This document shows, piece by piece, positions 27,285 to 64,000 of a DNA stretch of 64,000 nt. The stretch's first letter is position 1. The number at the start of each line of letters is the position of its first letter. The translations under genes and the position numbers were made by a program. The notes beneath the pieces were generated by a model. That model was not told the origin of the DNA. It searched no databases and worked only from the letters and a program-made list of their open reading frames with translations. The stretch covers positions 271,477 to 335,476 of the forward strand of contig CAZIZK010000001.1 in assembly GCA_964544225.1 (NCBI GenBank), in the 5' to 3' direction. This DNA is from an uncultured Candidatus Saccharibacteria bacterium. GTDB lineage: Bacteria; Patescibacteriota; Minisyncoccia; Phycocordibacterales; UBA9973.

Positions 27285-27465
27285 ATAAGTCATTAGAGGC
27301 TATCACCTCTAGAGCTTGCAATCTTGCAGGCAGGCTTTGGGAAGAAAGCCGTAAGGGCCGTAGAACCCACGAAATGAGAGCCCGAGAGGGAAACAAGGTG
27401 GTACCGCGAGAAGCTCGTCCTTGTATAACAATTTGTATTGTTGTACGTGGACGAGTTTTTTTTAT
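27285..27465 (+). promoter_or_regulatory. T-box riboswitch leader (Ile specifier) upstream of ileS
   Basis: Conserved T-box sequence aaacaaGGTGGTACCGCGag at 27391-27410. Terminator stem ctcgtcc...ggacgag plus a U8 run at 27414-27463. The small Stem-I hairpin tagaggctATCAcctcta presents AUC followed by a purine. Confidence 0.75.
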
Positions 27466-27484
27466 TAACCCAAATTATTTTATT

Positions 27485-49939: not shown

Positions 49940-51850
49940 ATGTTAAAATTTATACAATCAAAAACTTTCAAGATCGGAGGTTTCGTTGTAGCTTTTGCTT
50001 TCGCGTTCGCGCTTATGGCAAGTGCAGCAACTTACGTTCCAGTTAAGAAGGGTTCAGACGCGACTGCTGTTATGGCAGTTCAGACTCTAGTTGGTGCTAC
50101 AGCGGACGGTAAATACGGTCCAATGACAGCAGCTAAGGTTATGGCATGGCAGGCAGCTAACGGCTTAACAGCTGATGGTAAGTTCGGTCCAATGTCAGCA
50201 GCGAAAGCTAACGGTGGTTCAACAACAACTACAACAAGTACTGTTGCAGGATGTGCACCAGGCGCAATGTTCAGTGCAACAACTGGCATGCCATGTACAA
50301 CAACTACAACAACTACTACTACAACTACTGGTATGACTGGTGGTGCAGGTAGTGCTACTGTTACTGAGCTTTCAACTCCTACATCAAACACAAAGATTGG
50401 TGAAGGTGATACAAATGCAAAGGTTCTTGGTATCGAAGTAGAAGCTGACAACAACTCAGATCTATCAGTTACATCAATGAAAGTTTCATTCGTAAATGGT
50501 GGTTCAGGTTCAAGTAAGCTAAACCGTTACGCAAAGACTGTATCAATCTGGTACAACGATGCAAAGGTAGGTTCAGCTTCAACTGATGATTTCTCTGAGA
50601 CTTCAGGTACTTACTCAAAGTCAATCTCTATAGCTAACGCTATAGTAAAGGCTGACAAAGTTGGTAAGTTCTATGTTGCAGTAGATGCTATCTCAGATAT
50701 TGATTCTGGAAACACAGGCTCATCAAACAACACATGGACAGTTACTCTAAACAGTACACGTTACATGGATGCAACAGGTGCAGTACTAACAGACTCAACA
50801 GGTTCAATCGCAAACACAGCAATATTTGATACTCTTTCAAGTACAAATGATGTTGAAGCAAAGGTTAACCTAGCATCTGATTCAGTTACATCAAAGACAA
50901 TCAAGGTATCTACAACAAACGACACAAACCAAGTTGAGCTTATGAAGTTTACAATCAAGGCTCAAGGTTCAAAGATGGTTGTTGACCAGATCCCAGTATT
51001 GTTCACAGCTACAGGTACAGCAGCTTCTGATCTAGATCAGATGACTTCTAATGTAACTTTGAAGATCGATGGTCAAACATTCAACGAATCAGTTGTAACA
51101 TCAGCTACAGCTACAGCTACAATTAGTTTCGATGATCTAAACATTGAAGTTTCAGCAGAATCTACTGTAACAGGTACAATCTACGCTGATCTTAACGACA
51201 TCGACACTGGTTTTGCTGAAGGCGACACTCTTACAGCAGCTATCACATCATCTCTTGTAACTACAACAGGTAGTTCAGCAGGTGCTCTTGATATAGAAGA
51301 TTCAAATGGTGACCAGGTTGCAACAGGTGACCGTTCAGGTTCTGCAACAGGTAATGTTCTTACATTCCGTTCAACAGGTGTTAACGCTGTAATGGGTACA
51401 CCATCATACAGCCGTACAACTGATACAAACGGTAAGATAACTTCAGTTACTTACACAGTACCAGTTGCAGTTACTGCTTTTGGTAACACATTGTACATGG
51501 GTCAGTCAGCACAATTCGCTACTACAGCAACAGCATCTAATGCTTTTGCTATAACATTCGAAAATGCTGCTGCTCCAACAACAGCACTTACTTCATCTTC
51601 AACACAATCAATAACTCTATCTAGTTCAAATGCAACTATAGAGACTAATGGTTTCCGTCTAGATGATGGTACAACAAAGAACTTTACTATCACTGTTAAC
51701 CTAACAGACCCAAATGCATATGATGCATCATTCCGTGTTCGTCTAGCGCAAGCTCGCACATTCACAGAAGCATGGTTGTCTACAGGTACAAATAGTACTC
51801 TTCTACCACAAACTGACTACAGAACAGGATTTGAACTTATCAACAACTAA
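49940..51850 (+). CDS. Secreted Thr/Ser-rich cell-surface protein with N-terminal peptidoglycan-binding-like domain and poly-Thr linkers
   Basis: Signal peptide (FVVAFAFAFALMASA). PG_binding_1-like double motif VQTLVGATADGKYGPMTAAKVMAWQAANGLTADGKFGPMSAAKA. Cys-loop CAPGAMFSATTGMPC flanked by T4-T11 runs. A ~500-aa Ser/Thr-rich beta-type region follows. Confidence 0.65.
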   Translation: MLKFIQSKTFKIGGFVVAFAFAFALMASAATYVPVKKGSDATAVMAVQTLVGATADGKYGPMTAAKVMAWQAANGLTADGKFGPMSAAKANGGSTTTTTSTVAGCAPGAMFSATTGMPCTTTTTTTTTTTGMTGGAGSATVTELSTPTSNTKIGEGDTNAKVLGIEVEADNNSDLSVTSMKVSFVNGGSGSSKLNRYAKTVSIWYNDAKVGSASTDDFSETSGTYSKSISIANAIVKADKVGKFYVAVDAISDIDSGNTGSSNNTWTVTLNSTRYMDATGAVLTDSTGSIANTAIFDTLSSTNDVEAKVNLASDSVTSKTIKVSTTNDTNQVELMKFTIKAQGSKMVVDQIPVLFTATGTAASDLDQMTSNVTLKIDGQTFNESVVTSATATATISFDDLNIEVSAESTVTGTIYADLNDIDTGFAEGDTLTAAITSSLVTTTGSSAGALDIEDSNGDQVATGDRSGSATGNVLTFRSTGVNAVMGTPSYSRTTDTNGKITSVTYTVPVAVTAFGNTLYMGQSAQFATTATASNAFAITFENAAAPTTALTSSSTQSITLSSSNATIETNGFRLDDGTTKNFTITVNLTDPNAYDASFRVRLAQARTFTEAWLSTGTNSTLLPQTDYRTGFELINN

Positions 51851-51917
51851 TAATTCATTAGTTTAGATAGTTTGAACTTGATCTAAGGTTAAGTTAACCA
51901 AAAAGCCACCCATATGG

Positions 51918-53975
51918 GTGGCTTTTTGGTTTTTCTGGTATAATATCTGCATGAATATAAAGGATAAAATACTACAATATACATCTTTTGCCCTGGTCTT
52001 ATTGGCCCCATTGATTTATTGGTCACATAGGCTATTCCCATACATATCTTCTAAAACCTATTTCCTGTATGGATCAATAGAAGTTATATTTTTTATTTGG
52101 CTTTATACAGCTATTGTGGATAGGTCATACAGGCTTACTAAGCAAAATATATTATGGTTCACACCAGCACTCTTGTTTGTTTTGTGGATGACAGTTGCGG
52201 GGTTGTTTGGATATAACCTCGAGATGTCTTTTTGGTCATCATTTGCTCGGGGAACAGGGTTGCTCACTTTGTATCATTGTTTAGCTTTTTCAATTGTTAT
52301 AGCTTCTTTAGTAAATAAACATGGTATTAATTATCTAAATAAGTTTATAAATTATTTTTTAATAGGATCTTTTATACTTTCTATTAGTATTTGGCTGGGA
52401 GACAATTTTTTTATAAATAGATTAGAGATGTTAAAGTTTAGTAACGAGGGAGGGTTGATGGGGCAGTCCACACTAGCAGCAACATACCTAACATTTGCTC
52501 TCGCTTTTTCAATTTTTATGTTCTTTAAAAAAGACGTAACAAATAGAATGCGATACTGGCTCGTGTTTGTTATTTTGACAATATTGGCATCCCCACTATT
52601 TTTCAGCCTATTGAATCTATTTAAAGGAACAAGTGTTCTTGGTAGTGCGCGTGCTGCGATACTATCAATACCAGTTATAATTGTGGTTGCGTACACTTTC
52701 TACCTAAGTTTGAGTAATAAGAAAATTATTAGGAATATAGGTATTAGTATGTGCATAATAGGTATCGCAAGCTTTTCTATTTTTTGGGTGCAACTTATGA
52801 ACCCGAGTACGAAAATCCACAATGCCTTTGCACAAGAAGCTCGCGAGACTCGATTTATCTTTTGGGATATAGCTGATAAAGCTTTGAGTACACACCCATT
52901 ATTAGGTTATGGTCCAGAGAACTACATGGTTGCCTTTCAAGAGAATTTCAACCCAGACCTACTTTTGTCACAAAATAATACAGAGGGGTGGGATGATCGT
53001 GCTCATAATATATATTATGATATAGGTGTATCAGGTGGGTATCCCGCAATAGCCTTCTATGCTTTATTTTTATTAAGTACACTTGTTTTAATATATAAAG
53101 CGAAAAATATAAATAAGATTAATCGAGCACAAGCATCAGTCTTAGGAGCGTTAGTTATAGGGTATGTCTTTCAGAATTTATTTGCTTTTGACTCCAATTT
53201 GTCTATTTTTGTCATTTTTATGCTATTTGGTGTTCTTAATTCTTTAGCTTTTTTGGACAAAGAAGGTTATGTGGCATCACCTAAAATTAAAGATAACGAT
53301 AAGTATTTACTCTTATTTGGTATTACTATTTTATTTGCTGTATCTTGGGTATTTTTTACATACATGCCTACCCGTAAATCAAAAGCTTTTGCAGAAACAT
53401 TTGCATCTACCATAGACAAACGTTCACAATTATACCCAGATTTATTAAAAGGTTCTGTCGTTGGACAAGGGTGGGATGTGAGTGGATTGGCCTTTGATTC
53501 ATATAGGGAGTATGTTTCAAATGCAATACAATTAAAAAATAATAAGCAAATATTACCTTATTTAGTAAATAATTTAAATTCATTATTAGATTATTTATAT
53601 AAAGTTGCTGAGAACAATACTACTGATTATCGTTTATACATTACTATTGGTTATTTGGAAAATACACTTACTTATATGTCTGATAGACCGTATACACCAG
53701 AACTCAAAGCCAGATTATTAAGTGTTCTCGATAAGGCTCAGAAGTTAGCACCTAATAACCCCAATGTGTATTGGGGTATAGCTCAGGCTAAGGTATGGTC
53801 TGGAGACTTTGCTGGTACCGAGGAGGCGTACAGGAAAGCTATGGAAGTTGCGCCTAATTTACCAGGGTCTTACACATTATTTATGAAATACGCACAAGCT
53901 TTAGGTAATCAGAAGCTATTTAATGAAATTGCCTCTGAAGCACAGAAGAATGTAGCAGACTTTAAATATAATTAA
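51918..53975 (+). CDS. O-antigen ligase/Wzy_C-family polytopic membrane protein with C-terminal TPR domain (candidate O-oligosaccharyltransferase or polymerase)
   Basis: About 10 transmembrane helices with a large extracytoplasmic loop of the Wzy_C type. The ~230-aa C-terminal soluble region carries TPR-like repeats (NPNVYWGIAQAKVWSGDFAGTEEAYRKAMEVAPN). Confidence 0.6.
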   Translation: MAFWFFWYNICMNIKDKILQYTSFALVLLAPLIYWSHRLFPYISSKTYFLYGSIEVIFFIWLYTAIVDRSYRLTKQNILWFTPALLFVLWMTVAGLFGYNLEMSFWSSFARGTGLLTLYHCLAFSIVIASLVNKHGINYLNKFINYFLIGSFILSISIWLGDNFFINRLEMLKFSNEGGLMGQSTLAATYLTFALAFSIFMFFKKDVTNRMRYWLVFVILTILASPLFFSLLNLFKGTSVLGSARAAILSIPVIIVVAYTFYLSLSNKKIIRNIGISMCIIGIASFSIFWVQLMNPSTKIHNAFAQEARETRFIFWDIADKALSTHPLLGYGPENYMVAFQENFNPDLLLSQNNTEGWDDRAHNIYYDIGVSGGYPAIAFYALFLLSTLVLIYKAKNINKINRAQASVLGALVIGYVFQNLFAFDSNLSIFVIFMLFGVLNSLAFLDKEGYVASPKIKDNDKYLLLFGITILFAVSWVFFTYMPTRKSKAFAETFASTIDKRSQLYPDLLKGSVVGQGWDVSGLAFDSYREYVSNAIQLKNNKQILPYLVNNLNSLLDYLYKVAENNTTDYRLYITIGYLENTLTYMSDRPYTPELKARLLSVLDKAQKLAPNNPNVYWGIAQAKVWSGDFAGTEEAYRKAMEVAPNLPGSYTLFMKYAQALGNQKLFNEIASEAQKNVADFKYN

Positions 53976-53976
53976 T

Positions 53977-54882
53977 ATGTATAAAACAATCGTTACAGGA
54001 GGGGCAGGGTTTATAGGGTCGCATATTGTGGACGCTCTTGTGGATCTTGGCCACGAGGTTCATATTGTAGACAATATGTTTGCAGGTAAAAAAGAAAATA
54101 TTAACCCAAAGGCCGTGTTGCATACTGTAGATATTCGCGATTTGGATAGATTAAAGGACCTATTTCATGGTGCTACCTATGTTTTCCACCAGGCTGCGTT
54201 GCCACAAGTGCAATATTCTATCGAGAATCCGATCGAAACAAATGAAGTAAATGTAGTTGGTACATTAAATGTATTGGAAGCTTGTAGGGTAAATAATGTA
54301 AAGAGGGTAATATTTGCCTCTACTTGTGCAATCTATGGTAGTAGTGAAATACTCCCTTTTATCGAAGACACACAATCCTCACCTATGTCTCCATACGCAA
54401 TTCATAAATATGTTGGGGAGTCGTATATGAAATTGTATTCACAAATTTATAATCTGGAAACAGTTTGTCTAAGGTATTTCAATGCATATGGAAATAGGGC
54501 AAGTGTAAACGGATCGTATCCATTAGTAATTGCAAAATTTCTAGATTCAAGGAAGCAAAACAAGCCACTACTAATAACAGGCGATGGAAACAATACGCGT
54601 GATTATGTAAACGTTCTAGATATTGCACGGGCCAATATTGTGGCAATGAATTGCGACAATGTGGGCAAAGGGGAGGTGATCAATATTGCTTGTGGTAAAG
54701 AATACTCGGTAAATCAAATCGCCGAATTAATAGGCGGGGAAATTGAATATATTGCACCTAGGATAGAGCCAAAAAAGGCTGTGGCTGATATTACAAAAGC
54801 AAAAAATTTGTTGGGTTGGGAGCCAAGCATCAAGCTCGAGGATGCCTTGTTAGAATTGAAGAAGTATAATAATATAGCTTAA
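53977..54882 (+). CDS. NAD-dependent sugar-nucleotide epimerase/dehydratase (SDR family, GalE-like)
   Basis: [10 protein letters not shown] Rossmann motif and YxxxK catalytic pair (YAIHK). Confidence 0.85.
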
Positions 54883-54883
54883 T

Positions 54884-55945
54884 ATGGATAAAATAAAGAA
54901 AGCATTGATAATAGGTATCACAGGGCAGGATGGGTCATATCTAGCCGAGTTTTTGCTTGCAAAGGGCTATGAAGTGCATGGTATTATTCGTCGCTCATCG
55001 AGCTTTAATACAGCGCGCCTCGATAAAATATATCAGGATCCACATGTAGACAATCGCAATCTAATACTTCACTATGGGGATCTATCAGATTCATACAGTC
55101 TACACAATATAATAAAGAAGGCTCAGCCGGATGAAGTCTACAATCTGGGTGCGCAGAGTCATGTGCGTGTCAGCTTCGATATACCCGAATACACAGCCGA
55201 TATAGATGCACTAGGAACCTTGCGGTTGCTTGATGCAGTGAAGGAAAGTGGCTTGCCGATACGCTTTTACCAAGCAGGGTCTTCTGAAATGTTCGGTAAA
55301 GTCCTAGAAACTCCCCAGAAAGAAACAACTCCTTTTAACCCAGCAAGTCCCTACGGATGCGCGAAAGTTTTCTCGCATCATATTTGTGTCAATTATCGTG
55401 AGTCATATGGAATGTTTATCTGTAACGGCATATTGTTCAATCACGAGTCACCTCGTCGTGGCCGAACTTTCGTCACAAAGAAGATAGTAGAAGGTTTGGT
55501 GGATATAAAGCTCGGCAAGAAAGACAAGATATTTCTCGGCAATCTAGATGCAAAGCGTGACTGGGGTTATGCTCATGACTATGTAGAGGCTATGTGGCTC
55601 ATGCTTCAGCAGGATACTCCCGATGACTATGTAATAGCCACAGGCGAGACACACTCTGTCCGCGAGTTTGTGGAATATGCATCTTCACTTATTGGGTACA
55701 AGATAAACTGGAGTGGATTTGGGCTTGCTGAAGTGGGTACAGACGAGTCAACAGGTAAAGATATTATAAATATCGACGAGCAGTATTACAGACCAAGCGA
55801 AGTTGACTTGTTATTAGGTGACCCAAGTAAGGCAAAGAGTAAACTAAACTGGGACACAAAGGTAAAATTCAAAGATTTGGTGGACATAATGATGAAGGAA
55901 GAGTTCGAGGAACGTGGTTTTAAAAGTAGTGATTATATAAAATAA
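54884..55945 (+). CDS. gmd: GDP-mannose 4,6-dehydratase
   Basis: [36 protein letters not shown] is the canonical Gmd N-terminus. Also YGCAKVF and NHESPRRG. Confidence 0.95.
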
Positions 55946-55946
55946 T

Positions 55947-56885
55947 ATGAACAAGGATTCAAAGATATATGTAGCAGGACACAGGGGGCTTGCAGGTTCT
56001 GCAATAATGCGTGGTTTGCAAACTGCTGGTTATACAAACATAGTAGTCCGGACACATGCCGAGCTAGACTTAACTTCTGAAGACGCTGTTAAAAACTTTT
56101 TTATTTCTGAAAAGCCCGAGTATGTTTTCCTTGCTGCTGCAAAAGTGGGTGGAATCAATGCTAACAATACACAACCAGCTCTCTTTATAAGGCAAAATTT
56201 ACAAATACAAACCAATGTTATAGATCAGTCTTATAAAAATAATGTGAAGAAGTTATTGTTTCTTGGCAGTTCTTGTATTTATCCAAAGCTTGCACCGCAA
56301 CCAATGAAAGAAGAGTGTTTATTAACAAGCGAACTTGAGCCTACAAGTAGGCCATATGCAATAGCAAAGATAGCAGGTATTATAATGTGCCAGTCTTATA
56401 CTAAACAGTACGGCATGCCTACTATAAGTGTTATGCCAGCCAATTTGTATGGGGAAAATGACAATTTTAATTTAGAAACATCTCATGTTATGCCGGCGCT
56501 TATTCGTAAATTCCATGAAGCAAAAATAAATAATACAAAAGAGGTGGTAGCATGGGGTACAGGTAGTCCGATGCGTGAGTTCCTACATGTAGATGATTTG
56601 GCATCTGCATGTATATTTCTAATGAATAATTATAATGATCCAGAGATTATCAATATTGGTACAGGCGAGGATGTAACCATCCGTGAACTAACAGAAATGG
56701 TAAAAAAGATTGTCGGATATGAAGGCAATATTGTGTGGGATTCATCGAAGCCCGATGGTACTCCAAGGAAGGTGATGGACGTATCTAAACTGCATAATTT
56801 AGGGTTTAGACACACCACCTCGCTTGAGCATGGTATACAATTAACTTACCAATGGTATAAAGAAAATCAAGGATTAAGACAATGA
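55947..56885 (+). CDS. fcl: GDP-L-fucose synthase (GDP-4-keto-6-deoxymannose 3,5-epimerase/4-reductase)
   Basis: [21 protein letters not shown] and YAIAKIAG are typical Fcl/WcaG motifs. It lies directly downstream of gmd. Confidence 0.9.
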
Positions 56886-57772
56886 TCGTAGTTAGGTTAA
56901 AAGGTGGGTTAGGTAATCAGATGTTCCAATACGCATTGGGCAGGATTTTGTCTATCAAAAATAATACCGAACTAGTATTTAACATCGAAGCCTACGAAGA
57001 CAAGAGCCCTAGACTTTTTAAGAGCAATTTTGCAATGCGTGACTATGATTTGGGTGTTTTTAATATAAAAGGTCGCATTGCTAAAAAGTCTGAAATACCA
57101 TTGCTATATAGGATGTATGGTAAAGGTAAACTGATGGTCCTAATAGATGCTGTTAGGCGAAGAATCTTCAAGCATAAAGCTCAAGAGTTATATACTCAAA
57201 GGTTTAATCCTTATATGTTATCACTAGGCAAGGACTCATATATAGATGGTTTTTTTCAGTCACCAAAATATTTTATTGGATATGAAGATATTATTAGGCA
57301 AGATTTTAAATTAAGAAATGAACCTAGTGATAATATAAAACAAATGTATAAAGATATTTCGAATCATGAGTCTTTGTGTATGCATGTGAGGCGTGGAGAT
57401 TTCATAGGTAACCCTAATCATGATGTTTTAGATAGTGATTATTATAATAAAGCTATTTCTCTTTTAGAAGGCAAGACAAATATTGATACAATTTATATTT
57501 TTTCTGATGATATACAATGGTGCAAAGATAATATGCATTTCAATTACCCGACAGTATTTGTATCTGAGGGGTATGCTGGACTAAAAGGGGAGGGGCATAT
57601 GTACCTTATGAGTGCCTGCAAGAATTTTATAATACCAAACAGTACTTTCTCTTGGTGGGGAGTTTGGCTTTCGGAAAACAAAAACAAGAAGGTGGTGACC
57701 CCAAAGATATGGACAAAAGACCCTAATAACAATATGGGGGATTTAATATTAGAAGACTGGATAAGGATTTAA
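56882..57772 (+). CDS. Alpha-1,2-fucosyltransferase (glycosyltransferase family 11)
   Basis: GT11 motif [14 protein letters not shown], motif II HVRRGDF and C-terminal [13 protein letters not shown]. Confidence 0.85.
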
Positions 57773-57777
57773 TTTTT

Positions 57778-58614
57778 ATGATTTTTAAAAAGTTTCATAA
57801 AATAAATTCAAATTTTTGTGAAAATATATTTTTACACAAAGTTGTTGATATTTTACATAAACATTTAGACGATAATTATAATCTTATTTTAACTAATAAT
57901 GAAGATATTGATTTACTTGATTTTAATGACAAGTGTATAAATATTGTTATATTTATTTCAGATGAAGAGGGGATTATTCCAGTTTGGGTAAATAAAGTAG
58001 ATTTTATTTTTAGAACTTACGGAAATAATGATATTTGCGATTATAAAAAGATATTTCCAATTCCTTGTGGTTTTGTTGGCCCTTTTAAAATTGATGGTCT
58101 AGATAATACTTATTTAGGAGAATTAGAAAAGACCCCTTTAACTCAAAGAGAGTATGATTTATTTTATTCTGGTCAAAAAGCTCTAAATAGAATAATTTTC
58201 ATGTTTTTTGTAAATAGAATTAAGAATAAATTTAATTCATTTATAAATCAGACTATAGGTTTCAGAAAGGGATTATCAATACAAAAATATTTTTCAATTA
58301 TGAATAATTCAAAAATTGCCTTGGTCCCAAGAGGTGCAGTTATTCCGGAATCTTTTAGATACATGGAAGCTTTTGAATCTAATTGTATTGTTATTACAAG
58401 TTACCCAAGGCATTTAAGTAAATATAATATGTGGTATTATGAAAATTCCCCAGCTGTTTTTATAAAGAATTGGTGGAGTTTAAAACCAAGATTAATTGAT
58501 AAATTATTATCAAAAGAAAACTTGGAACTTTCTTTTGAAAAAAATAAGAAGTATTATGATGAATACCTGTCTACAAAAGCTGTTGCAGATTATATAATAA
58601 ACAATTTAAAATAA
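57778..58614 (+). CDS. Exostosin (GT47)-like glycosyltransferase (tentative)
   Basis: C-terminal half has LFYSGQ...SKIALVPRGAVIPESFRYMEAFESNCIVI, resembling the exostosin/GT47 FCLxPxG....RxxEAxxxGC[IV]PV core. The gene is very AT-rich. Confidence 0.4.
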   Translation: MIFKKFHKINSNFCENIFLHKVVDILHKHLDDNYNLILTNNEDIDLLDFNDKCINIVIFISDEEGIIPVWVNKVDFIFRTYGNNDICDYKKIFPIPCGFVGPFKIDGLDNTYLGELEKTPLTQREYDLFYSGQKALNRIIFMFFVNRIKNKFNSFINQTIGFRKGLSIQKYFSIMNNSKIALVPRGAVIPESFRYMEAFESNCIVITSYPRHLSKYNMWYYENSPAVFIKNWWSLKPRLIDKLLSKENLELSFEKNKKYYDEYLSTKAVADYIINNLK

Positions 58615-58615
58615 T

Positions 58616-59443
58616 ATGAATAAATTAGTCTCAGTAATATTACCTACATACAATGGCTCTAGTTGGATCCAAAGGGCTATAGAAAGCGTTATAAGCCAAT
58701 CCTACAAGGATTGGGAGCTTATCGTGGTAGATGATGGCTCTACCGACAATACAGGGCAAATAGTGGCCAATATGAGCCAAAATGACAGTAGGATCAGGTA
58801 TATAAAGAACGATGTAAATTCAGGTATCCAGAAGACATTGAATAATGGCCTAAACGTGGCCAAAGGTGAATATATTGCCCGTATTGATGACGATGATTAT
58901 TGGGTAGATATTGATAAATTACAGAAACAAGTAGACTTTATGGATGGCAATCCTGACTATGTGTTGGTAGGCACAGGAGTGATTATTGTAAATGAAAAGG
59001 GTGATGAACTTTTTAAATATCTAGTACCAGAAACTAATGAACAAATAAAGAAGCGTCTTTTGGGGAAGAACTGTTTTGTACACTCAAGTGTAATGTTTAA
59101 AAAGAGTGCGGTTATGCAGTTTGGTGGTTATAGTGAAGGCGTAGAGGAGAAGCATTTTGAGGATTATGATCTATGGTTGAAGCTCGGTACTATCGGCAAG
59201 CTCGCGAACCTACCAATATATGGATTGAAGTATACTATGCGTGAAGGTAGCCTAAGCGCAGTAAATAGAGTAGAAGTATTCCGTAAAATATTGAAGCATT
59301 TAAAGAAGTACAAGAGCTCCTACAAGGGGTATTGTGGAGCAATAATTCGTGCTTATGCAAGATTTGTCGTATATGGATTATTTTTAAAATCCCCAATTAA
59401 GTTTTCTTTAAATAAAATTATAAAGTTTTATAAAGAGCATTAA
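58616..59443 (+). CDS. Glycosyltransferase family 2
   Basis: VSVILPTYNG......VVDDGSTDNT and DDDD/ED motifs of the GT-A fold. Confidence 0.85.
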   Translation: MNKLVSVILPTYNGSSWIQRAIESVISQSYKDWELIVVDDGSTDNTGQIVANMSQNDSRIRYIKNDVNSGIQKTLNNGLNVAKGEYIARIDDDDYWVDIDKLQKQVDFMDGNPDYVLVGTGVIIVNEKGDELFKYLVPETNEQIKKRLLGKNCFVHSSVMFKKSAVMQFGGYSEGVEEKHFEDYDLWLKLGTIGKLANLPIYGLKYTMREGSLSAVNRVEVFRKILKHLKKYKSSYKGYCGAIIRAYARFVVYGLFLKSPIKFSLNKIIKFYKEH

Positions 59444-59450
59444 TTTGTGG

Positions 59451-60374
59451 CTACCTTATAATTTTCTTTATATATGTACGTGCTAACGATTTTAGAATCT
59501 CTATTTTAACGATAGATAGTAAGTAAATATATTTTATAAGTAGATTACCAGATGGATATTGGTTTGCAAGTTTATTTATTATTACTAGACTCTTCTTTAT
59601 AATTATATATAAATCTTTTAGATGTAATTCTTTTTTTGAGTGGAATTTATAAAATATCTCTGAATTATCAAGCGAGCCCGTATAGTATTTGTAATTGTCT
59701 TCGAATATAGTATAAACACTTTTATTTATGTTTTCTTTTGCTGTGTTTGAATAATTCGATCCATGCTGTCTATAATCTAAAAGTATCTTGTGTATATTAA
59801 AACCTGCATGCTTTTTAATGGCTTTTGCCAAGAAGGCAAAATCTTCACAGGGGACTTCTGGGTAGTGGGGGACAGTATTTAATATTTCTTTCCTAAACAT
59901 GACACTCGGGTTACAGAAATATATGTCACTAATAAATCTCCAAGCTAGGCGCAAGCTATTACTTGGGTGAAATACTTTAATACCATCACAATTGTTGCCA
60001 AATAATTGATACCCTCCACCTACTATGTCTATATGTTTATTTTTATATAAAAAGTCTACCTGAGTTTCAAGCCTGTATGGCCTTTGAATATCATCAGCAT
60101 CTGCTTTGGCTATATAAGCACCTTGAGCTATGTCTAGGCCTGTATTTGACGCACCATGGATACCTTTATTGTATTTATTGTTTACTAATATAACTCTTTT
60201 ATCTTTTTGAGCCCAATTATTTATAATATCTACCGAATTGTCCGTAGAGCAATCGTTTATGATTATCAATTCAAAATTTGTATATGTTTGATTTAATATA
60301 CTTTGTATAGTTTCATCTAAATACAAGCTGGCATTATAAACTGGCATTATTATACTTACTTTTTCTTTTGTCAT
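59451..60374 (-). CDS. Glycosyltransferase family 2
   Basis: VSIIMPVYNA......IIINDCSTDNS and ADADD. Confidence 0.85.
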   Translation of the reverse strand: MTKEKVSIIMPVYNASLYLDETIQSILNQTYTNFELIIINDCSTDNSVDIINNWAQKDKRVILVNNKYNKGIHGASNTGLDIAQGAYIAKADADDIQRPYRLETQVDFLYKNKHIDIVGGGYQLFGNNCDGIKVFHPSNSLRLAWRFISDIYFCNPSVMFRKEILNTVPHYPEVPCEDFAFLAKAIKKHAGFNIHKILLDYRQHGSNYSNTAKENINKSVYTIFEDNYKYYTGSLDNSEIFYKFHSKKELHLKDLYIIIKKSLVIINKLANQYPSGNLLIKYIYLLSIVKIEILKSLARTYIKKIIR

Positions 60375-60380
60375 AAATAA

Positions 60381-61136
60381 TTAAAAAAATCTTTTTATTA
60401 TTAAACTGCTTACTAGTATAGGATTCTTTGTCTGGTATAATAATTTTTTATAAAATTTAAAAAGCCCTACAATTTGCTTCGTCCGGCTCTTGCTATTATT
60501 TAGAGGGTGTCTTCGTATATGAACTAGTACTTCATCTATATAATCTATGTTGTATTTATTTGATATTCTGAGCCACATTTCCCAGTCTTCAGCATAGCGT
60601 AAACTTTCATCAAAAGTCCCCACATGATCAAACACATCCTTTTTAATCAAAACACAACTAGCACTACCTAATATTTTATTTGCTTTCAGTAGTGCTGAGT
60701 AGGCGTTCCTCCTATAATTATTATCAATATTTAAAACCTTTTCCGTGCTAGGCCCACCATTCTCATTAATAGTGTCATATCTACCATACACAAGCCCCAA
60801 GTTATCAAATGGGCTATTATTAAATACCTCCATTTGTTTTGCTAGCTTATTACTTACCCATACGTCATCTGCATCCAAGAATGCTATATATTCTGCTTCT
60901 GAATGGCTAAGGCCATTATTACGAGCACTATTTGGTCCAGCATTGTTTTGTTTTATATATACAATATCTATGTTAAGTAGTTCTTTGCAAGAGGCAATAA
61001 CCTGGGCCGTGTTATCTGTCGAACCATCATCAACAACAAATACTTTATTTACAGCTAAAGTTTGTTCGCTTACTGACCATAAAGCCTCTTTTAGGTATTT
61101 ACCATTATTGTATGTTGGGATTATTACATCTATCAT
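60381..61136 (-). CDS. Glycosyltransferase family 2
   Basis: IDVIIPTYNN......VVDDGSTDNT and LDADD. Confidence 0.85.
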   Translation of the reverse strand: MIDVIIPTYNNGKYLKEALWSVSEQTLAVNKVFVVDDGSTDNTAQVIASCKELLNIDIVYIKQNNAGPNSARNNGLSHSEAEYIAFLDADDVWVSNKLAKQMEVFNNSPFDNLGLVYGRYDTINENGGPSTEKVLNIDNNYRRNAYSALLKANKILGSASCVLIKKDVFDHVGTFDESLRYAEDWEMWLRISNKYNIDYIDEVLVHIRRHPLNNSKSRTKQIVGLFKFYKKLLYQTKNPILVSSLIIKRFF

Positions 61137-61137
61137 A

Positions 61138-62103
61138 TTAGTACCAATTTTTTATATTTATAATATCTTGATATTTATCCAGTGGTATACCCGGGATATC
61201 TTCATTGTAGAATATTTTACAGAATAGAGCATATCTATCTAGGGCACAATGAACATAAGATTCACTGACATTTTTTACAGCTTCACGATTATTGTAAAAG
61301 TTCATGCCCGACCCTACGCAGGAAAAGTGTACGAGCTTGTTACCAAAGTCTATTTTATAAGGGGTAGGGAAGTTGTTGATGTTTTTAAATATATTGTCTC
61401 TTTTGCCGTATTTATCACAACCACCCACATCATCTTCTGATAGGTGATGTATACGTGCACCATTATATATCATTTCAAACATAACTTGATCAAAAAAGTC
61501 CAATGTCTTGAATGTATACAATGGGTATGAACCATATATTTTTTGTGCGAATTCACTGAGTGGAAATTTTCCTAAGAGTTTTTTGATTTGGTATTTTATA
61601 TGTTTAAATATAAATGAAGGATTTAAATCTGATATTTTTAAAACTGATTTTTGAAGATTTATTTTGTCTTTTTTAAATAAAATACAATTAGTTTGGCATA
61701 GATCAGCAAGATGCCTAACATCATCTCTTTCACAAGGGTTATGGTGATAATTGCGTATTGGTCCTATGATGTCATAATCCTTTGCTAGGGTTAATATTTC
61801 ATCAATAATGTTTTCACGAAATATAGTATCACTATCAAAATGAATTATTTGATTATGTTCTGTTTCCAATATTGCCTTTTCCCACAACATAGCTGTGCCA
61901 CGATGACCGTATTTAAAAGCATTTAAAATATTTGCTTCAATTTCAATAAATACATTATTTGGGTGAGTATCTATATACTTGAAGTCTTTTTTAGTGCCAT
62001 AAATATGTACTTTGTAATTATGGTATTTATGAAAAGAGTTCAGTGCAATTTTACCGATTTTGCCACAATTTACTATCTCTGTAAATATAAATGTATTATC
62101 CAT
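61138..62103 (-). CDS. Putative nucleotide-sugar-dependent glycosyltransferase (GT-A-like, DxD), family unassigned
   Basis: IIHFDSDTIF DxD-like motif. It sits inside a glycosyltransferase cluster, and no stronger match was recognised. Confidence 0.3.
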   Translation of the reverse strand: MDNTFIFTEIVNCGKIGKIALNSFHKYHNYKVHIYGTKKDFKYIDTHPNNVFIEIEANILNAFKYGHRGTAMLWEKAILETEHNQIIHFDSDTIFRENIIDEILTLAKDYDIIGPIRNYHHNPCERDDVRHLADLCQTNCILFKKDKINLQKSVLKISDLNPSFIFKHIKYQIKKLLGKFPLSEFAQKIYGSYPLYTFKTLDFFDQVMFEMIYNGARIHHLSEDDVGGCDKYGKRDNIFKNINNFPTPYKIDFGNKLVHFSCVGSGMNFYNNREAVKNVSESYVHCALDRYALFCKIFYNEDIPGIPLDKYQDIINIKNWY

Positions 62104-63082
62104 GGATTATTTTTTTAAATTTATTTAATATTTTATACACAAACTTTGTTTTTTCTGGGTATAGGGTAACTTCTACTTTATCAAGATTATTTTTATGATC
62201 ATTTATGTACTCACAAAGCATAGGGAATATCTGGTATTTATCCAAGATTAGGTTTTTTGCTATTTTCAATTCACCTTCGGATCGTTCATAAAGGTCACTT
62301 TGGATTATATATTTTATTGTATTTATCGCCTCATCTGTATTATCTATATCTATTACAGATAAAGTATCTTTTGTAAAATAATCATATATATTAGTACACC
62401 CATAGTATATAGGGTATGCCCCAGCAAGGAAAGTATCTGTCAATTTTTCTGTCCAATAATCATTTGTAGAGCTATTTTCAAGTACTATGTGATATTTATA
62501 CGGTGCTATACCATCCCATTTGTCATCTAAGGTATTTGACCCTAAGCCATAAATATCTATTTGATCACCCAATTCATTTTTGAGTTTATTTAGGAAATCA
62601 TGTCTTTTTTTATGTCCTTTTGTAAATGTCTTATTCGATACAATAATAGAGGCTAATTTTGTTTTAATAGGTGTTGGTAAGGCTTTTAATTCATCATAAG
62701 TTTTATAATATTTATCTTCACCACTTTGCATCTTGTAACCAATCCACCAAGGTAATGCTTGTTGTTGGTGGATAATATTTGGGTGCTTGATTCCTTTCTG
62801 ACATGTTACTATTGCACCAAATTGTTTGGTGAATTGATGGTTGTATTTATGTACAGATTCGGGTTCGGTTGTTATTAGTACAATATTTTCCTTTGCAACT
62901 TTTGTTCCTTCTTCTTTTTCTAATCCACCATACACAACCCACAGATCGCACTCATCAATATCTTCATTGATGTAGAATTCACAATTACCCCATACTGGAT
63001 TCAAAGAGGGAAGCTGTTTAATGAATGGTTTACCACCACCAGCTGTAGATATTTTAATTTTAAAAATATTTTTCTCATTCAT
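62096..63082 (-). CDS. Alpha-1,3/4-fucosyltransferase-family glycosyltransferase (GT10)
   Basis: IVSNK...R..FLNKL.....IDIYGLGSN....YKYHIVLENSSTNDYWTEKLTDTFLAGAYPIYYG matches the GT10 FucT motifs (compare YKFNLCFENTQGYGYVTEKI...PIYWG). The start is taken at MNEKNIF. Confidence 0.7.
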   Translation of the reverse strand: MNEKNIFKIKISTAGGGKPFIKQLPSLNPVWGNCEFYINEDIDECDLWVVYGGLEKEEGTKVAKENIVLITTEPESVHKYNHQFTKQFGAIVTCQKGIKHPNIIHQQQALPWWIGYKMQSGEDKYYKTYDELKALPTPIKTKLASIIVSNKTFTKGHKKRHDFLNKLKNELGDQIDIYGLGSNTLDDKWDGIAPYKYHIVLENSSTNDYWTEKLTDTFLAGAYPIYYGCTNIYDYFTKDTLSVIDIDNTDEAINTIKYIIQSDLYERSEGELKIAKNLILDKYQIFPMLCEYINDHKNNLDKVEVTLYPEKTKFVYKILNKFKKIIHG

Positions 63083-63084
63083 AA

Positions 63085-63840
63085 TTAATTTTTTGTAAAC
63101 CAAAAACAACCACAACCGTATCGTTGGGAATCTGCTAAAGATTTTGATGCATTATATATGATACCTTCTTCCTGCCCATTATCGGGGATTAATGTAAACT
63201 CTTTTAATGTAAGCTCAGAAAAATATTGCATTATTTGATCATATGAATATATGCGATGCGCATTAAATTGAACCATGGGTTTACCTATAGGGCTTACAAA
63301 TAAAAGATTTCCATTCGGAGCAAGAACTCGCACCAACTCTTTTATTGATTTAATATCTGCATCTGGGTCTATTGGGTCACCATATCGCCCAAGCCCAATA
63401 TGCTCTATTGTGTGCATGCAAGATATTGAATCAACACTATTGTCCTCGAATGGCAATGCAAGTAAGTTTCCTTCTTTAGAGGACAAATTGTCCAGCTTTA
63501 CATTGGCTGGTCTATAATCATAAAACTCTACAGGTATAAAAGCGGATACGATAGTGGAAAAATGTAATGTCGAAGATACATCTATATGTTTAGTTGGTTT
63601 AGTTTTTGATAAAATTCTTGCTGCCCAGGCTGGATGATAGATATAGTGTGCATCGAATAATGTTTTCTCTGTTTTATCAAAGAATTGTGGACATCGATTT
63701 TTCCAATCTACACTAAGTCTAGGATTTTTTTTAGCTTCTTTTTGGAATAATCTAAACTCTTTTAAGAAAGAAATATAAAGATATGTTTCTTTAATAAACT
63801 TCTTGATAAAACTTGGAATAATTTTTTTTATTATTTGCAT
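63085..63840 (-). CDS. Class I SAM-dependent methyltransferase-like protein (DUF268-type)
   Basis: LPFEDNSVDSISCMHTIEHI and LAPNGNLLFVSP resemble methyltransferase motifs. It may O-methylate the glycan. Confidence 0.5.
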   Translation of the reverse strand: MQIIKKIIPSFIKKFIKETYLYISFLKEFRLFQKEAKKNPRLSVDWKNRCPQFFDKTEKTLFDAHYIYHPAWAARILSKTKPTKHIDVSSTLHFSTIVSAFIPVEFYDYRPANVKLDNLSSKEGNLLALPFEDNSVDSISCMHTIEHIGLGRYGDPIDPDADIKSIKELVRVLAPNGNLLFVSPIGKPMVQFNAHRIYSYDQIMQYFSELTLKEFTLIPDNGQEEGIIYNASKSLADSQRYGCGCFWFTKN

Positions 63841-63843
63841 AAA

Positions 63844-64000
63844 TTATAACTTTAATGTTTTTGTAATTGTTTTACTAAAATTTTCAGGCAGGAATACCTT
63901 GTACTGATCACTTTTTAAAAATTGCTCGATAGCTTTTGTGTACATATTATATTTATTCTCATCTATTGATTCTAGAAATTCCAAAAGTTCTCTATCGTTT
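63844..64000 (-). CDS. 3' end of a gene extending beyond the window (partial; hypothetical)
   Basis: Only one reverse frame is open across 63847-64000 (…NDRELLEFLESIDENKYNMYTKAIEQFLKSDQYKVFLPENFSKTITKTLKL*), with its stop at 63844-63846. Confidence 0.3.
   Translation of the reverse strand, partial: NDRELLEFLESIDENKYNMYTKAIEQFLKSDQYKVFLPENFSKTITKTLKL

Follow-up and report, generated by a model that had tools for sequence, protein, structure and literature searches.

The ABC-transporter-dependent, terminally capped glycan pathway is known from O-antigens and from the S-layer glycans of Gram-positives. Glycosylation of S-layers combines a WbaP-like primer, the Wzm/Wzt exporter, an O-methyl cap, and a Wzy_C transferase with TPR, and features low G+C (PMC2943079). 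Caps halt chain elongation and license export, and the carbohydrate-binding domain of A. aeolicus Wzt binds a 3-O-methyl sugar cap (PMC9445017). In S-layer systems and in PglL, moreover, Wzy_C enzymes with a C-terminal extension have protein O-oligosaccharyltransferase activity (PMC2943079). Fucosyltransferases (FucT) of Helicobacter, on the other hand, are marked by poly-C tracts and heptad repeats.

The locus described here resembles both O-antigen and S-layer systems. The window, i.e. the whole stretch of 64,000 nucleotides analysed, carries GT11 and GT10 fucosyltransferase genes flagged in an earlier note, which form the middle of a surface-glycan locus that spans about 16.4 kb, its 16 genes arranged as two convergent operons. 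The locus continues past the window end at 64,000 into L001, which is the window DNA itself (100% identity over 12,099 nt, window 51902-64000). Its features are as follows, with window-equivalent positions beyond 64,000.

49940-51850, plus strand: Thr-rich surface protein with peptidoglycan-binding domain (PF01471, PG_binding_1), 636 aa
51896-51931, plus strand: strong terminator-like hairpin, 16-bp stem and T-run, 3' of the surface-protein gene
51951-53975, plus strand: Wzy_C-family membrane protein, ligase-type (PF04932); first gene of the plus-strand operon
53977-54882, plus strand: GalE-like short-chain dehydrogenase/epimerase (PF01370)
54884-55945, plus strand: gmd, GDP-mannose 4,6-dehydratase (TIGR01472)
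55947-56885, plus strand: fcl, GDP-L-fucose synthase (NF047922)
56882-57772, plus strand: GT11-family fucosyltransferase (α1,2-FucT family; PF01531 and motifs), 296 aa
57778-58614, plus strand: putative exostosin-like glycosyltransferase (weak RXYLT1_C match), 278 aa
58616-59443, plus strand: GT2a glycosyltransferase (PF00535); last gene of the plus-strand operon
59451-60374, minus strand: GT2b glycosyltransferase (PF00535); last gene of the minus-strand operon
60381-61136, minus strand: GT2c glycosyltransferase (PF00535)
61138-62103, minus strand: Pfam-less GT-A-fold glycosyltransferase with invariant DxD, 321 aa
62096-63082, minus strand: GT10-1, GT10-family fucosyltransferase (PF00852 and motifs), 328 aa
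63085-63840, minus strand: DUF268-family SAM-dependent methyltransferase (PF03269, PF08241)
63844-64000, minus strand: 3' end (last 157 nt in the window) of GT10-2, the second GT10 gene (PF00852), 352 aa in full; complete at 63844-64902 (L001 11943-13001)
64905-66191, minus strand: wzt, after GT10-2
66193-67029, minus strand: wzm
67061 to about 68332, minus strand: WbaP/WcaJ-type priming transferase

Genes in the locus are tightly packed, with gaps of 1-6 nt or overlaps of 4-8 nt, and inspection of the junction sequence places the convergent GT2a and GT2b 7 nt apart. The surface-protein gene adjoins the two operons. The mechanical GTG start at 51918 falls within the hairpin, which makes ATG 51951 the likelier start of the Wzy_C gene. 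The earlier note did not cover the exporter, the second GT10, the Pfam-less GT-A gene, or the role of the methyltransferase, partly because the locus extends past the window end.

The cluster is fairly conventional and would serve to build, export, and probably also attach a surface sugar chain that contains fucose and is capped by methyl. That it does so via the Wzm/Wzt pathway in the steps set out below is the reading favoured here, with moderate confidence; the substrates, linkages, and order of action are those we infer. Synthesis would start at the cytoplasmic face, where the WbaP/WcaJ-type polyprenyl-phosphate glycosylphosphotransferase (PF02397 at 230 bits; L008 orthologue, TIGR03025 at 336 bits against 295.55) primes the lipid carrier. 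The chain would then be extended by the three GT2 enzymes, the Pfam-less GT-A enzyme, and the exostosin-like protein. GT2a, GT2b, and GT2c match PF00535 with E values of 3.3e-38, 1.6e-36, and 1.9e-32, respectively. GT2a is a conserved partner of GT11, as orthologues 51-59% identical adjoin GT11 in L005, L009-L013, and L088. Similarly, the Pfam-less enzyme, with its GT-A fold and invariant DxD (HFDSD, residues 88-92), is a conserved partner of GT10-1 in Patescibacteria. ORF 57778-58614 gives a weak RXYLT1_C match (E 1.3e-3) and belongs to a small family (49 matches) in which PF03016 (Exostosin) and PF24785 appear in distant members. It has the lowest GC of the window genes (23.9% GC, GC3 15.8%), is absent from the syntenic L005, and is a putative exostosin-like glycosyltransferase accessory to the locus. 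The epimerase (PF01370, E 1.7e-61) has GalE as its best NCBIfam match (172.8 bits, under the GalE cutoff) and orthologues 58-69% identical in the same position in L005 and L088; it is a probable UDP-hexose or UDP-HexNAc 4-epimerase.

Fucose would be supplied by Gmd and Fcl, converting GDP-mannose to GDP-L-fucose, and added by the one GT11 and two GT10 enzymes. gmd scores 558.9 bits against TIGR01472 (cutoff 415), and fcl 490.9 bits against NF047922, just below the cutoff of 500, with residues 4-308 of 312 aligned. A complete GDP-fucose pathway 1 kb upstream had been proposed; both genes are present, but they abut GT11, and the pathway in the window is complete only from GDP-mannose onward. Among the window ORFs of at least 300 aa that were scanned, neither manB nor manC turned up. 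fcl is translationally coupled to GT11, its stop overlapping the GT11 start by 4 nt. The proposed identity of the GT11 gene is borne out by its match to PF01531 (E 3e-29, 102.7 bits; gathering score 23.9) and by both expected motifs, one of 11 residues at 8-18 (nt 56903-56935) and HVRRGDF at 168-174 (nt 57383-57403). Orthologues in Patescibacteria loci share 43-65% identity. GT11 probably forms the Fucα1,2-Gal (H-type) linkage. Characterised GT6 members require a Fucα1,2-Gal acceptor, and a GT6 enzyme is combined with an orthologous GT11 in the sister loci L088 and L111; this points to a Fucα1,2-Gal product, and an H-type motif in this glycan is chemically plausible.

The resemblance of GT10-1 to Helicobacter FucT was likewise upheld. 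The protein matches PF00852 (E 1e-12, 48.5 bits; gathering score 23.9) and H. pylori FucT 2NZW (E 4e-10), and contains YKYHIVLENS (residues 195-204), DYWTEKL (208-214), and PIYYG (224-228). Residues E73, R160, E202, N203, E212, and K213 are invariant, and Y209 is at least 90% conserved. Hence, profile searches assigned neither enzyme to a non-fucosyl family, the motifs are retained, and both family assignments held. GT10-1 keeps the donor-site residues of H. pylori FucT and the catalytic-Glu (E95-type) motif, and its C-terminal part aligns to four solved GT10 enzymes. The N-terminal acceptor domain gives no sequence alignment to solved GT10 enzymes, so the acceptor may well differ. GT10-2, whose C-terminal peptide is readable within the window, matches PF00852 (E 2.1e-14) and 2NZW (E 1.9e-17) and also retains the donor-site motif. 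The GT10-1 subfamily is widespread: at least 562 relatives occur in species-representative genomes, from some archaea and from a wide range of bacterial phyla, most of them environmental.

Elongation would be stopped by the DUF268 methyltransferase O-methylating the non-reducing end, and we propose this enzyme as the one that adds the chain-terminating cap. It matches PF03269 (E 5.8e-14, 52.8 bits against 25) and PF08241 (E 2.7e-7), and the DUF268 match recurs in 11/11 members of alignment A3. The gene contains two A8 tracts within its first 120 nt. In metagenomes, GT11 and not GT10 is the partner of DUF268: it is the commonest neighbour, present in 36/50 loci and at most 3 kb away in 31/50, and it starts at most 126 nt downstream of DUF268 in 16/59 loci. 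The window gene lies between two GT10 genes and not beside GT11, which counts against the favoured reading. In L008, a relative 91-95% identical, about 0.5 kb is deleted from within the DUF268 gene; this is either an assembly artefact or a sign that the cap varies or can be done without there. Every Patescibacteria locus examined has methyltransferase genes in the stretch just downstream of Wzt, but of different families: the window has DUF268, L005 has FkbM, L009 and L013 have two FkbM, and L088 has Methyltransf_31 with DUF268.

The cap would next be read by the C-terminal carbohydrate-binding domain of Wzt, and Wzm/Wzt would export the lipid-linked glycan. Wzm matches PF01061. Wzt comprises ABC_tran and Wzt_C (43.1 bits against 30.4) and aligns with A. 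aeolicus Wzt 8dku over both the nucleotide-binding and carbohydrate-binding domains (E 3.7e-70). The aligned part preserves just one methyl-pocket residue of the A. aeolicus protein, Ala348; Arg stands opposite Thr346, and Trp362 falls outside the alignment. Finally, the Wzy_C-family protein would move the glycan to an acceptor outside the membrane. This protein (PF04932, E 2.3e-13, 50.6 bits against 31.7) has about 12 TM-like segments, a loop at residues 290-372, and a C-terminal soluble domain approximately 200 aa long, and is of the O-antigen-ligase/O-oligosaccharyltransferase type. The leading candidate for that acceptor is the neighbouring Thr-rich protein, with PF01471 (E 3.4e-8), one N-terminal TM/signal segment, the tracts STTTTTST and T11, and a Ser+Thr content of 28% against 11% background. 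The overall logic is the same as in S-layer glycosylation (PMC2943079), except that the TPR of its Wzy_C transferase is not detected by Pfam in the C-terminal domain here.

The host, judged by a RecA that clusters at 90% identity or more with Candidatus Nomurabacteria, appears to be an ultra-small, Nomurabacteria-like Patescibacteria (CPR) bacterium. The outer framework (primer, Wzm, Wzt ... GT2a, GT11 ... Wzy_C, PG-binding protein) is syntenic in L005, L009-L013, and L088, whereas variation among the inner transferases is serotype-like. The Wzy_C gene keeps the same locus edge in L005, L009, L010, L012, L013, and L088, and surface-protein homologues adjoin it in L005, L009, L010, and L012. 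The otherwise syntenic L005 lacks fcl, and neither gmd nor fcl occurs within 10 kb in L009-L012 or, for L088, within 8 kb; the supply of GDP-fucose thus either comes from genes elsewhere or is not shared by the whole locus family.

The same assembly and export could yield something other than a glycoprotein, namely a lipoglycan formed by WaaL-like ligation, or a released or wall-linked secondary cell-wall polymer or capsule. Wzy_C domains are found also in lipid-directed ligases and polymerases; PF04932, shared with WaaL-type ligases, is described as 'O-Antigen ligase'. The undetected TPR, the good score of the Wzt nucleotide-binding domain against the teichoic-acid exporters TagH/TarH, and the chance that the PG-binding protein is a mere neighbour point the same way. 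However, that protein lies beside the Wzy_C gene in the window and four other Patescibacteria loci, the locus has no LCP-family wall ligase by Pfam, and CPR bacteria are not known to have lipid A. S-layer and PglL Wzy_C enzymes with a C-terminal extension also glycosylate proteins (PMC2943079). We regard a non-glycoprotein product as possible but rather unlikely. It is more doubtful still that any of the GT10 or GT11 enzymes uses another GDP-linked 6-deoxyhexose or other donor instead of L-fucose. Such a donor would fit the divergent acceptor domain of GT10-1, as well as the syntenic loci that have GT11 and/or GT10 but lack fcl (L005) or have neither gmd nor fcl nearby (L009-L012, L088). Against it, fcl is coupled to GT11 here, both families exceed Pfam gathering thresholds, and GDP-fucose-binding residues are retained. 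In addition, about a quarter of GT10-1 homologues (about 20/82) have gmd and/or fcl no more than 10 kb away, and CAZy GT10 and GT11 are not known to include activities other than fucosyltransferase.

Least probable, and indeed very unlikely, is that GT11 and GT10 decorate a LacNAc-type Gal-GlcNAc chain with Lewis-Y, Lewis-b, or H epitopes mimicking a eukaryotic host, as in H. pylori LPS. Both enzyme families and the GDP-fucose pathway are present, the GT10 enzymes keep the H. pylori donor-site motif, GT6 pairing suggests a Fucα1,2-Gal product, and the three GT2s could in principle make Gal-GlcNAc. Of the Lewis/H-antigen-like potential raised earlier, the H-type motif therefore stays plausible, but Lewis mimicry is not supported. 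The FucT genes lack poly-C/G phase-variation tracts and C-terminal heptad repeats, no LacNAc-forming family was detected by Pfam, and the unaligned GT10-1 acceptor domain suggests a different acceptor. Furthermore, the surrounding genes point to a cap-dependent Wzm/Wzt pathway that includes a methyltransferase as well as a ligase-type Wzy_C protein, and not to LPS-core decoration. No literature was found tying Patescibacteria to fucosyltransferases. The Nomurabacteria-like host, the environmental GT10 relatives, and the capped-glycan context speak against the suggestion of a toolkit of host-associated glycan mimics.

The AT-richness noted for 56.9-64 kb is real: its eight genes average 31.1% GC (GC3 25.8%) against 40.9% (GC3 39.1%) for 39 genes in 1-48 kb (Mann-Whitney p about 3e-6 for GC and 1e-5 for GC3). 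However, the boundary was misplaced, as the GC3 shift already begins at about 49.9 kb (surface-protein gene 0.24, Wzy_C 0.29), and gmd is the exception, not the norm, in the AT-shifted region. As for the suggested mosaic or horizontal origin, a mosaic history is plausible, in view of the varying methyltransferase slot (DUF268 here; FkbM-type in L005, L009, and L013; a deletion remnant in L008), the lack of the 24% GC ORF 57778-58614 in L005, the lack of any GT10 in L088, and an IS200-like transposase flanking the locus in L008.

The fucosyltransferase genes belong to a surface-glycan locus of a type that is already known, dependent on Wzm/Wzt export and, probably, a cap, but which is unusual in its host lineage, its fucosyltransferases, and its DUF268 content. 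The public contig L001 matches window positions 51902-64000 at 100% identity and, running on beyond the window end, adds four minus-strand genes past the DUF268 methyltransferase gene at 63085-63840. The genes of the locus are listed below, with positions past 64000 given as window equivalents.

49940-51850, plus strand: Thr-rich surface protein
51951-53975, plus strand: Wzy_C membrane protein
53977-54882, plus strand: SDR epimerase (GalE-like, 301 aa)
54884-55945, plus strand: gmd (TIGR01472, 558.9 bits, cutoff 415)
55947-56885, plus strand: fcl (NF047922, 490.9 bits, cutoff 500; alignment end to end)
56882-57772, plus strand: GT11 fucosyltransferase (296 aa; Pfam PF01531, Glyco_transf_11)
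57778-58614, plus strand: 278-aa exostosin-like ORF (small family, whose distant members have Exostosin and RXYLT1_C domains)
58616-59443, plus strand: GT2 transferase, GT2a
59451-60374, minus strand: GT2 transferase, GT2b
60381-61136, minus strand: GT2 transferase, GT2c
61138-62103, minus strand: 321-aa GT-A ORF, in no Pfam family
62096-63082, minus strand: fucosyltransferase GT10-1 (328 aa; Glyco_transf_10 C-terminal domain, E 1e-12, 48.5 bits vs 23.9)
63085-63840, minus strand: DUF268 methyltransferase
63844-64902, minus strand: second GT10, GT10-2 (352 aa; last 157 nt inside the window)
64905-66191, minus strand: Wzt (ABC_tran, PF00005, and Wzt_C, PF14524, 43.1 bits vs 30.4)
66193-67029, minus strand: Wzm (PF01061, 68.7 bits)
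67061 to ~68332, minus strand: priming transferase (Bac_transf, PF02397, 230 bits)

The genes are arranged as two convergent operons whose stop codons, at 59443 and 59451, are 7 nt apart. Within both operons, neighbouring genes are separated by gaps of 1-6 nt or overlap by 4-8 nt. The minus-strand operon runs from the primer through wzm, wzt, GT10-2, the DUF268 methyltransferase, GT10-1, the 321-aa ORF, and GT2c to GT2b, and the plus-strand operon comprises the Wzy_C protein, an SDR epimerase, gmd, fcl, GT11, the 278-aa ORF, and GT2a. In the closely related locus L008 (91-95% DNA identity), the orthologue of the priming transferase (94% identical) matches TIGR03025 with 336.4 bits vs 295.55. 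The 19,957-bp contig goes on for ~4 kb past the primer gene, and this flank was judged from L008 as a proxy. A strong terminator-like hairpin with a 16-bp stem (51896-51931, plus strand) lies 3' of the surface-protein gene. It overlaps the mechanically called GTG start of the Wzy_C ORF (51918), and a TATAAT at 51939-51944 stands ahead of the ATG at 51951, which is probably the start of the gene. The promoter scan was uninformative, with 60 sites vs 71±10 in shuffled sequence.

The host is a Patescibacteria (CPR) bacterium, as the window RecA clusters at at least 90% identity with RecA of Candidatus Nomurabacteria genomes. Outside the locus, the window carries common housekeeping genes (RecA, EF-P, FtsK, SHMT, thymidylate synthase, ribonucleotide reductase, and a number of aminoacyl-tRNA synthetases). 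No tRNA or tmRNA genes were found in the whole 64-kb window, and the ORFs at 188-1036, 1020-2753, and 34382-36283 had no Pfam match. The marked AT-richness that had been noticed in the fucosyltransferase half of the locus was borne out by a comparison of GC and GC3. The eight genes in 56.9-64 kb have a mean GC of 31.1% and GC3 of 25.8%, whereas the corresponding means are 40.9% and 39.1% for the 39 genes of 1-48 kb (Mann-Whitney p ~3e-6). The window minimum is found in the 278-aa ORF (23.9% GC, GC3 15.8%), which is also absent from the syntenic relative L005; owing to this low GC and its absence there, the ORF seems to have entered the plus-strand operon recently.

Both fucosyltransferase assignments of the earlier note hold. 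The product of 56882-57772 matches PF01531 over residues 114-295 in a profile search (E 3e-29, 102.7 bits vs a gathering score of 23.9), and its diagnostic GT11 motifs were located as an 11-letter block at residues 8-18 and HVRRGDF, the HxRRGD motif of GDP-fucose binding, at 168-174. The latter is kept as HVRRGDY in the L005 orthologue. A PDB sequence search with GT11 gave no match. For GT10-1, PF00852 stands above its threshold and the match to the H. pylori α1,3-fucosyltransferase 2NZW has an E value of 4e-10; GT10-2 scores 54.1 bits to PF00852 and E 1.9e-17 to 2NZW. Residue conservation in GT10-1 was judged from an alignment of 37 full-length relatives (40-64% identity), in all of which E73, R160, E202, N203, E212, and K213 are invariant, while Y209 is conserved in at least 90%. 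In H. pylori FucT, their counterparts for N203, Y209, E212, and K213 are N240, Y246, E249, and K250, which together with R195 are the donor-site residues known from the work on 2NZW. A profile search places R160 opposite the conserved Arg of human FUT9. The family found is thus fucosyl, and the donor residues and the Glu motif are kept, so neither of the refuting outcomes named in the earlier note came about.

The N-terminal acceptor half of GT10-1 gave no sequence alignment to any solved GT10 when the family profile was compared with PDB sequences. The N-terminal Glu was judged instead by motif comparison with the deposited 2NZW sequence. At this motif level only, both proteins have the same T-x-E-x-E-S spacing (Y92-T93-G94-E95-N96-E97-S98 in 2NZW, I70-T71-T72-E73-P74-E75-S76 in GT10-1), and E95 of 2NZW is the proposed catalytic base. 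The E73 motif directly follows β-strand 67-70 of the predicted model, whose GT-B fold is closest to solved GT10 enzymes. The acceptor domain of GT10-1 is divergent in sequence, and its acceptor may well not be the GlcNAc/Glc of a LacNAc-type chain to which this family adds α1,3- or α1,4-linked fucose. The subfamily comprises at least 562 relatives in species-representative genomes, spread over many bacterial phyla and several archaea. Three homologues (P0048, P0049, and P0070) have 535-539 aa and are ~200 aa longer than the others, which implies a fusion of GT10 with another domain; the two with a named source, P0049 and P0070, are both from Patescibacteria.

A complete GDP-fucose pathway had been placed 1 kb upstream of the fucosyltransferases. 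The gmd and fcl genes are indeed present, but they stand directly in front of GT11, the fcl stop overlapping its start by 4 nt. No manB or manC was found among the window ORFs of at least 300 aa that were scanned. Moreover, several syntenic loci are without fcl, or without both gmd and fcl. In L005 (14635-17577), gmd is present, fcl is absent, and a GalE-like SDR directly follows gmd, the locus being otherwise collinear with the window. A 301-aa SDR was considered as an Rmd-like GDP-sugar reductase replacing fcl in L005; this is not favoured, as its NCBIfam profile is GalE/LegB/TviC-like and it scores only 62 bits to the gmd and 57 to the fcl profiles.

The best-supported reading of the locus is an ABC-transporter-dependent, cap-terminated pathway. 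In characterised pathways of this kind, the cytoplasm is where the glycan is finished, attached to a polyprenyl carrier; a methyl, phospho-methyl or Kdo modification of the terminus halts elongation, and export is restricted to capped chains, since the carbohydrate-binding domain of Wzt must bind the cap (PMC9445017; PMC3482155). In A. aeolicus, this domain recognises 3-O-methyl-mannose or 3-O-methyl-rhamnose (PMC9445017). Residues 53-381 of the window's Wzt align with A. aeolicus Wzt (8dku) across both domains (E 3.7e-70), with no clear conservation of the methyl-pocket residues. No Wzx-type flippase occurs among all 16 ORFs of the locus. The DUF268 methyltransferase is coded among the transferases, and each Patescibacteria locus that was examined has a methyltransferase, of one family or another, after Wzt. 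The Wzy_C protein (Wzy_C 50.6 bits vs 31.7) combines ~12 TM-like segments and the external loop typical of such proteins with a ~200-aa soluble C-terminal domain. Directly upstream of its gene, and syntenic in four other loci, is the gene of the 636-aa Thr-rich surface protein. This protein combines a PG_binding_1 domain with a single TM/signal segment at its N-terminus, and it is rich in Ser+Thr (28%), including poly-Thr tracts. By analogy with characterised systems, we infer that the DUF268 methyltransferase would cap the chain and that the Wzy_C protein would pass the exported glycan to the neighbouring wall-binding protein, on the model of the S-layer clusters; all linkages are likewise putative.

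The framework of the locus recurs among relatives. All 17 proteins of the window's locus were compared by tblastn with 82 loci chosen through GT10-1, and the same arrangement was found in the Patescibacteria loci L005 and L009-L013. One strand carries the primer, Wzm, Wzt, one or more methyltransferases, GT10-1, the GT-A ORF, GT2c, and GT2b, and the other carries GT2a, GT11, sometimes fcl and gmd, Wzy_C, and the PG-binding protein. The slot after Wzt is filled differently from locus to locus. L005, which is without fcl and the 278-aa ORF, has an FkbM/Methyltransf_21 methyltransferase in the DUF268 slot (9295-9981), and L009 (8627-10008) and L013 (7650-9037) have two FkbM methyltransferases there. 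L088 retains both the framework and DUF268; it lacks GT10 and carries instead Methyltransf_31 (5103-5630) and a GT6-family enzyme. The fixed slot after Wzt is a site of non-orthologous replacement. A methyltransferase is thus a constant of the locus family, and its enzyme family is not.

The locus centre thus behaves like a serotype-variable cassette. The mosaic origin that the earlier note had suggested draws support from this variable inner content, and the exchange was most likely among Patescibacteria, because the nearest GT10-1 relatives adjoin the GT-A ORF, which among the loci compared was found only in Patescibacteria-like ones. The L005 locus shows no GC depression. In L008, the DUF268 gene (9800-9990) has lost ~0.5 kb internally and keeps only its 5' and 3' ends between the two GT10 genes; this may reflect either an assembly artefact or natural loss of the putative cap enzyme. 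An IS200-like Y1 transposase (PF01797, E 2.2e-9; 4206-4889, minus strand) marks the far edge of this locus, just upstream of the priming-transferase gene, and the flank at this transposase also has ~30% GC.

Among characterised systems, the cap-terminated O-antigen pathways (E. coli O9a WbdD/Wzm/Wzt; A. aeolicus WzmWzt with a 3-O-methyl-Man/Rha cap) share a polyprenyl-phosphate primer with the window locus (PMC3482155, PMC9445017). O-antigen ABC pathways also resemble it in using transferases that are soluble or peripheral to assemble the whole glycan in the cytoplasm, and in having a Wzm permease, a Wzt with a binding domain, and no Wzx. They differ in that the window methyltransferase is a stand-alone DUF268 protein, not a WbdD-type kinase-methyltransferase or transferase domain, that the window sugars are centred on fucose (GT11 and two GT10), and that the host is one of the Patescibacteria. 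Patescibacteria are presumed to be without LPS.

The closest overall analogue is a Gram-positive S-layer glycosylation cluster. The slg clusters of Geobacillus stearothermophilus NRS 2004/3a and Paenibacillus alvei are like the window locus in their WbaP-like primer, Wzm/Wzt, tight overlapping genes, and G+C below that of the genome, and they likewise have a Wzy_C transferase, though the TPR of WsfB has no Pfam profile match in the C-terminal domain of the window's Wzy_C protein (PMC2943079). A terminal 2-O-methyl cap has been proposed to end elongation of slg glycans, whose acceptor is a surface protein (PMC2943079). In these clusters, dTDP-rhamnose and further donors are built into rhamnans or Gal/ManNAc polymers; the window instead has GDP-fucose with GT10 and GT11, and its candidate acceptor is the PG_binding_1 poly-Thr protein in place of the S-layer proteins. 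A further likeness is offered by the wrt operon of R. tropici CIAT 899, which makes a fucose-rich methylated O-antigen with Wzm/Wzt through WrtF, a GT-A fucosyltransferase (PMC12595478). In the window, by contrast, fucosylation is ascribed to GT10 and GT11, both of the GT-B type; phylum and envelope also differ, and the rhizobial O-antigen is ligated to lipid A-core. The O-antigen of R. etli CE3 ends in a tri-O-methyl-fucose cap.

The combination of GT10, GT11, and gmd-fcl had been read as a toolkit for Lewis-Y/H-type-like epitopes, known mainly from host-associated bacteria that mimic eukaryotic glycans. H. pylori FutA/FutB (GT10; PDB 2NZW/5ZOI) and FutC (GT11) do represent both CAZy families, and H. 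pylori likewise combines them with GDP-fucose synthesis. The ENS/ENI...Y/W.TEK...PIY.G donor block and the Arg of the H. pylori enzymes are found in GT10-1 as well as GT10-2, and GT10-1 also has the Glu95 T-x-E-x-E-S context; GT11 shares with FutC the 11-letter block and HxRRGD. However, overall identity to the H. pylori enzymes is ~20%, and the window genes lie inside a Wzm/Wzt locus with a methyltransferase, in another organism with another ecology. No LacNAc-forming galactosyltransferase family was found in the window with Pfam, although the three GT2s could in principle make Gal-GlcNAc; the setting is one of Wzm/Wzt and Wzy_C, and the genome is Nomurabacteria-like. Furthermore, the stretch 51.9-64 kb is free of C or G runs of at least 6 nt, and the fucosyltransferase genes of the window (GT10 and GT11) carry neither tandem nor C-terminal heptad repeats. 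Given the organism, the pathway, and the want of a recognisable LacNAc-forming enzyme and of Helicobacter-style phase-variation tracts or heptad repeats, Lewis mimicry of a eukaryotic host is unsupported. Nor is the gene combination a signature of such mimicry, because it is common in environmental Wzm/Wzt loci.

The H-type part of the proposal fares better. GT6-family enzymes adjoin the orthologous GT11 in L088 and L111, where the GT6 domain (PF03414, 118.8 bits; blood-group A/B transferase family) lies in 9574-11154 (plus strand) and 5790-6479 (plus strand), respectively. The characterised GT6 members known to us need a Fucα1,2-Gal acceptor. These sister loci and that requirement argue for Fucα1,2-Gal as the GT11 product, and H-type chemistry is plausible for this enzyme from gene content. 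The overlap of fcl with the GT11 start likewise lends indirect support to GDP-L-fucose-dependent α1,2 transfer to a β-galactoside as the probable activity of GT11. The blood-group-B-like O-antigen of E. coli O86 is made with WbnK (GT11) and WbnI (GT6), by Wzx/Wzy and not Wzm/Wzt. The pairing in L088 and L111 is like that of E. coli O86 and of Bacteroides ovatus BoGT6a (PDB 4cj8), in which H-type and then A/B-type epitopes are formed; unlike E. coli O86, the window itself is without GT6 and has two GT10 instead. In these sister loci, which are without GT10, the GT6 domain is fused to a ~300-aa C-terminal region and stands beside GT11 and DUF268. The observation of the earlier note is thus confirmed, and its interpretation is partly supported.

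DUF268 stands beside GT10-1 in 13 of the 82 loci chosen through GT10-1, mostly at 51-59% identity and across phyla. As a sample chosen through GT10-1 was biased, the search was reversed; 80 metagenome loci were picked by DUF268 alignment, and counts were taken from the 50 loci of at least 5 kb. GT11 was present anywhere in 36/50 and within 3 kb in 31/50, followed by Wzt (15/50), fcl (9/50), and any GT10 (3/50). GT10-1 with DUF268 as a cap module was rejected on these counts. Where at least 1 kb was available downstream of the methyltransferase, GT11 started at most 126 nt downstream on the same strand in 16/59 loci. Additionally, GT11 was enriched with DUF268 in the GT10-1-chosen sample (7/13 vs 11/69, Fisher p 0.006). 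On the question of which enzyme METHYLTRANSFERASE goes with, the reverse counts and this enrichment point to GT11 as the conserved partner of DUF268, often in a Wzm/Wzt setting.

PF03269 is matched by 11/11 aligned bacterial DUF268 proteins, and a PDB sequence search found no solved relative. Two A8 tracts (63822-63829 and 63725-63732) lie within the first 120 nt of the DUF268 gene on the minus strand and are two of the four runs of at least 8 in the whole 64 kb; they could allow slipped-strand on/off switching of the putative cap enzyme. It is a possible, though on balance doubtful, extension of these results that DUF268 proteins are O-methyltransferases of a widespread DUF268 + GT11 (+GT2) module, building a methylated H-type cap (methyl-fucose or methylated Fucα1,2-Gal) that is read by Wzt; in Nomurabacteria-like CPR, such a cap would finish a serotype-variable glycan put by Wzy_C on the Thr-rich wall-anchored protein. 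If true, this would be the first function for DUF268. In C. elegans glycomics, DUF268 was among the genes clustered with glycosylation genes, and the fucose-modifying methyltransferase of the nematode is unidentified according to the same work (PMC7614267). This link is a lead, by which, if the module reading holds, the Caenorhabditis namesakes would be nominated for the methyltransferase acting on fucose in nematode glycans.

The genomes of Patescibacteria are very small, and the known way of life of these bacteria is attachment to other microbes. To our knowledge, their surface chemistry is almost unstudied. Glycosylation in Saccharibacteria has been called 'unexplored' (PMC11623550), and literature searches gave no relevant prior description of fucosyltransferases in Patescibacteria or of fucose glycosylation in CPR. 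A conserved ~16-kb locus with about nine transferases is a large investment for a small genome. Its outer framework is fixed (primer, exporter, GT2-GT11 pair, Wzy_C ligase-type protein, and surface protein), and its inner transferases and methyltransferases are swappable; this pattern resembles O-antigen serotype variation and would fit selection by phages or partner recognition. Moreover, the locus provides a handle on three uncharacterised groups, namely the short GT10 subfamily, the Pfam-less GT-A family, and DUF268. Elsewhere in the window (27374-30997, plus strand), a 1207-aa IleRS-like class-I aminoacyl-tRNA synthetase with tRNA-synt_1, Anticodon_1, and DUF5915 contains a complete histidine-phosphatase domain (PF00300, E 5.9e-30) inserted at residues 563-724.
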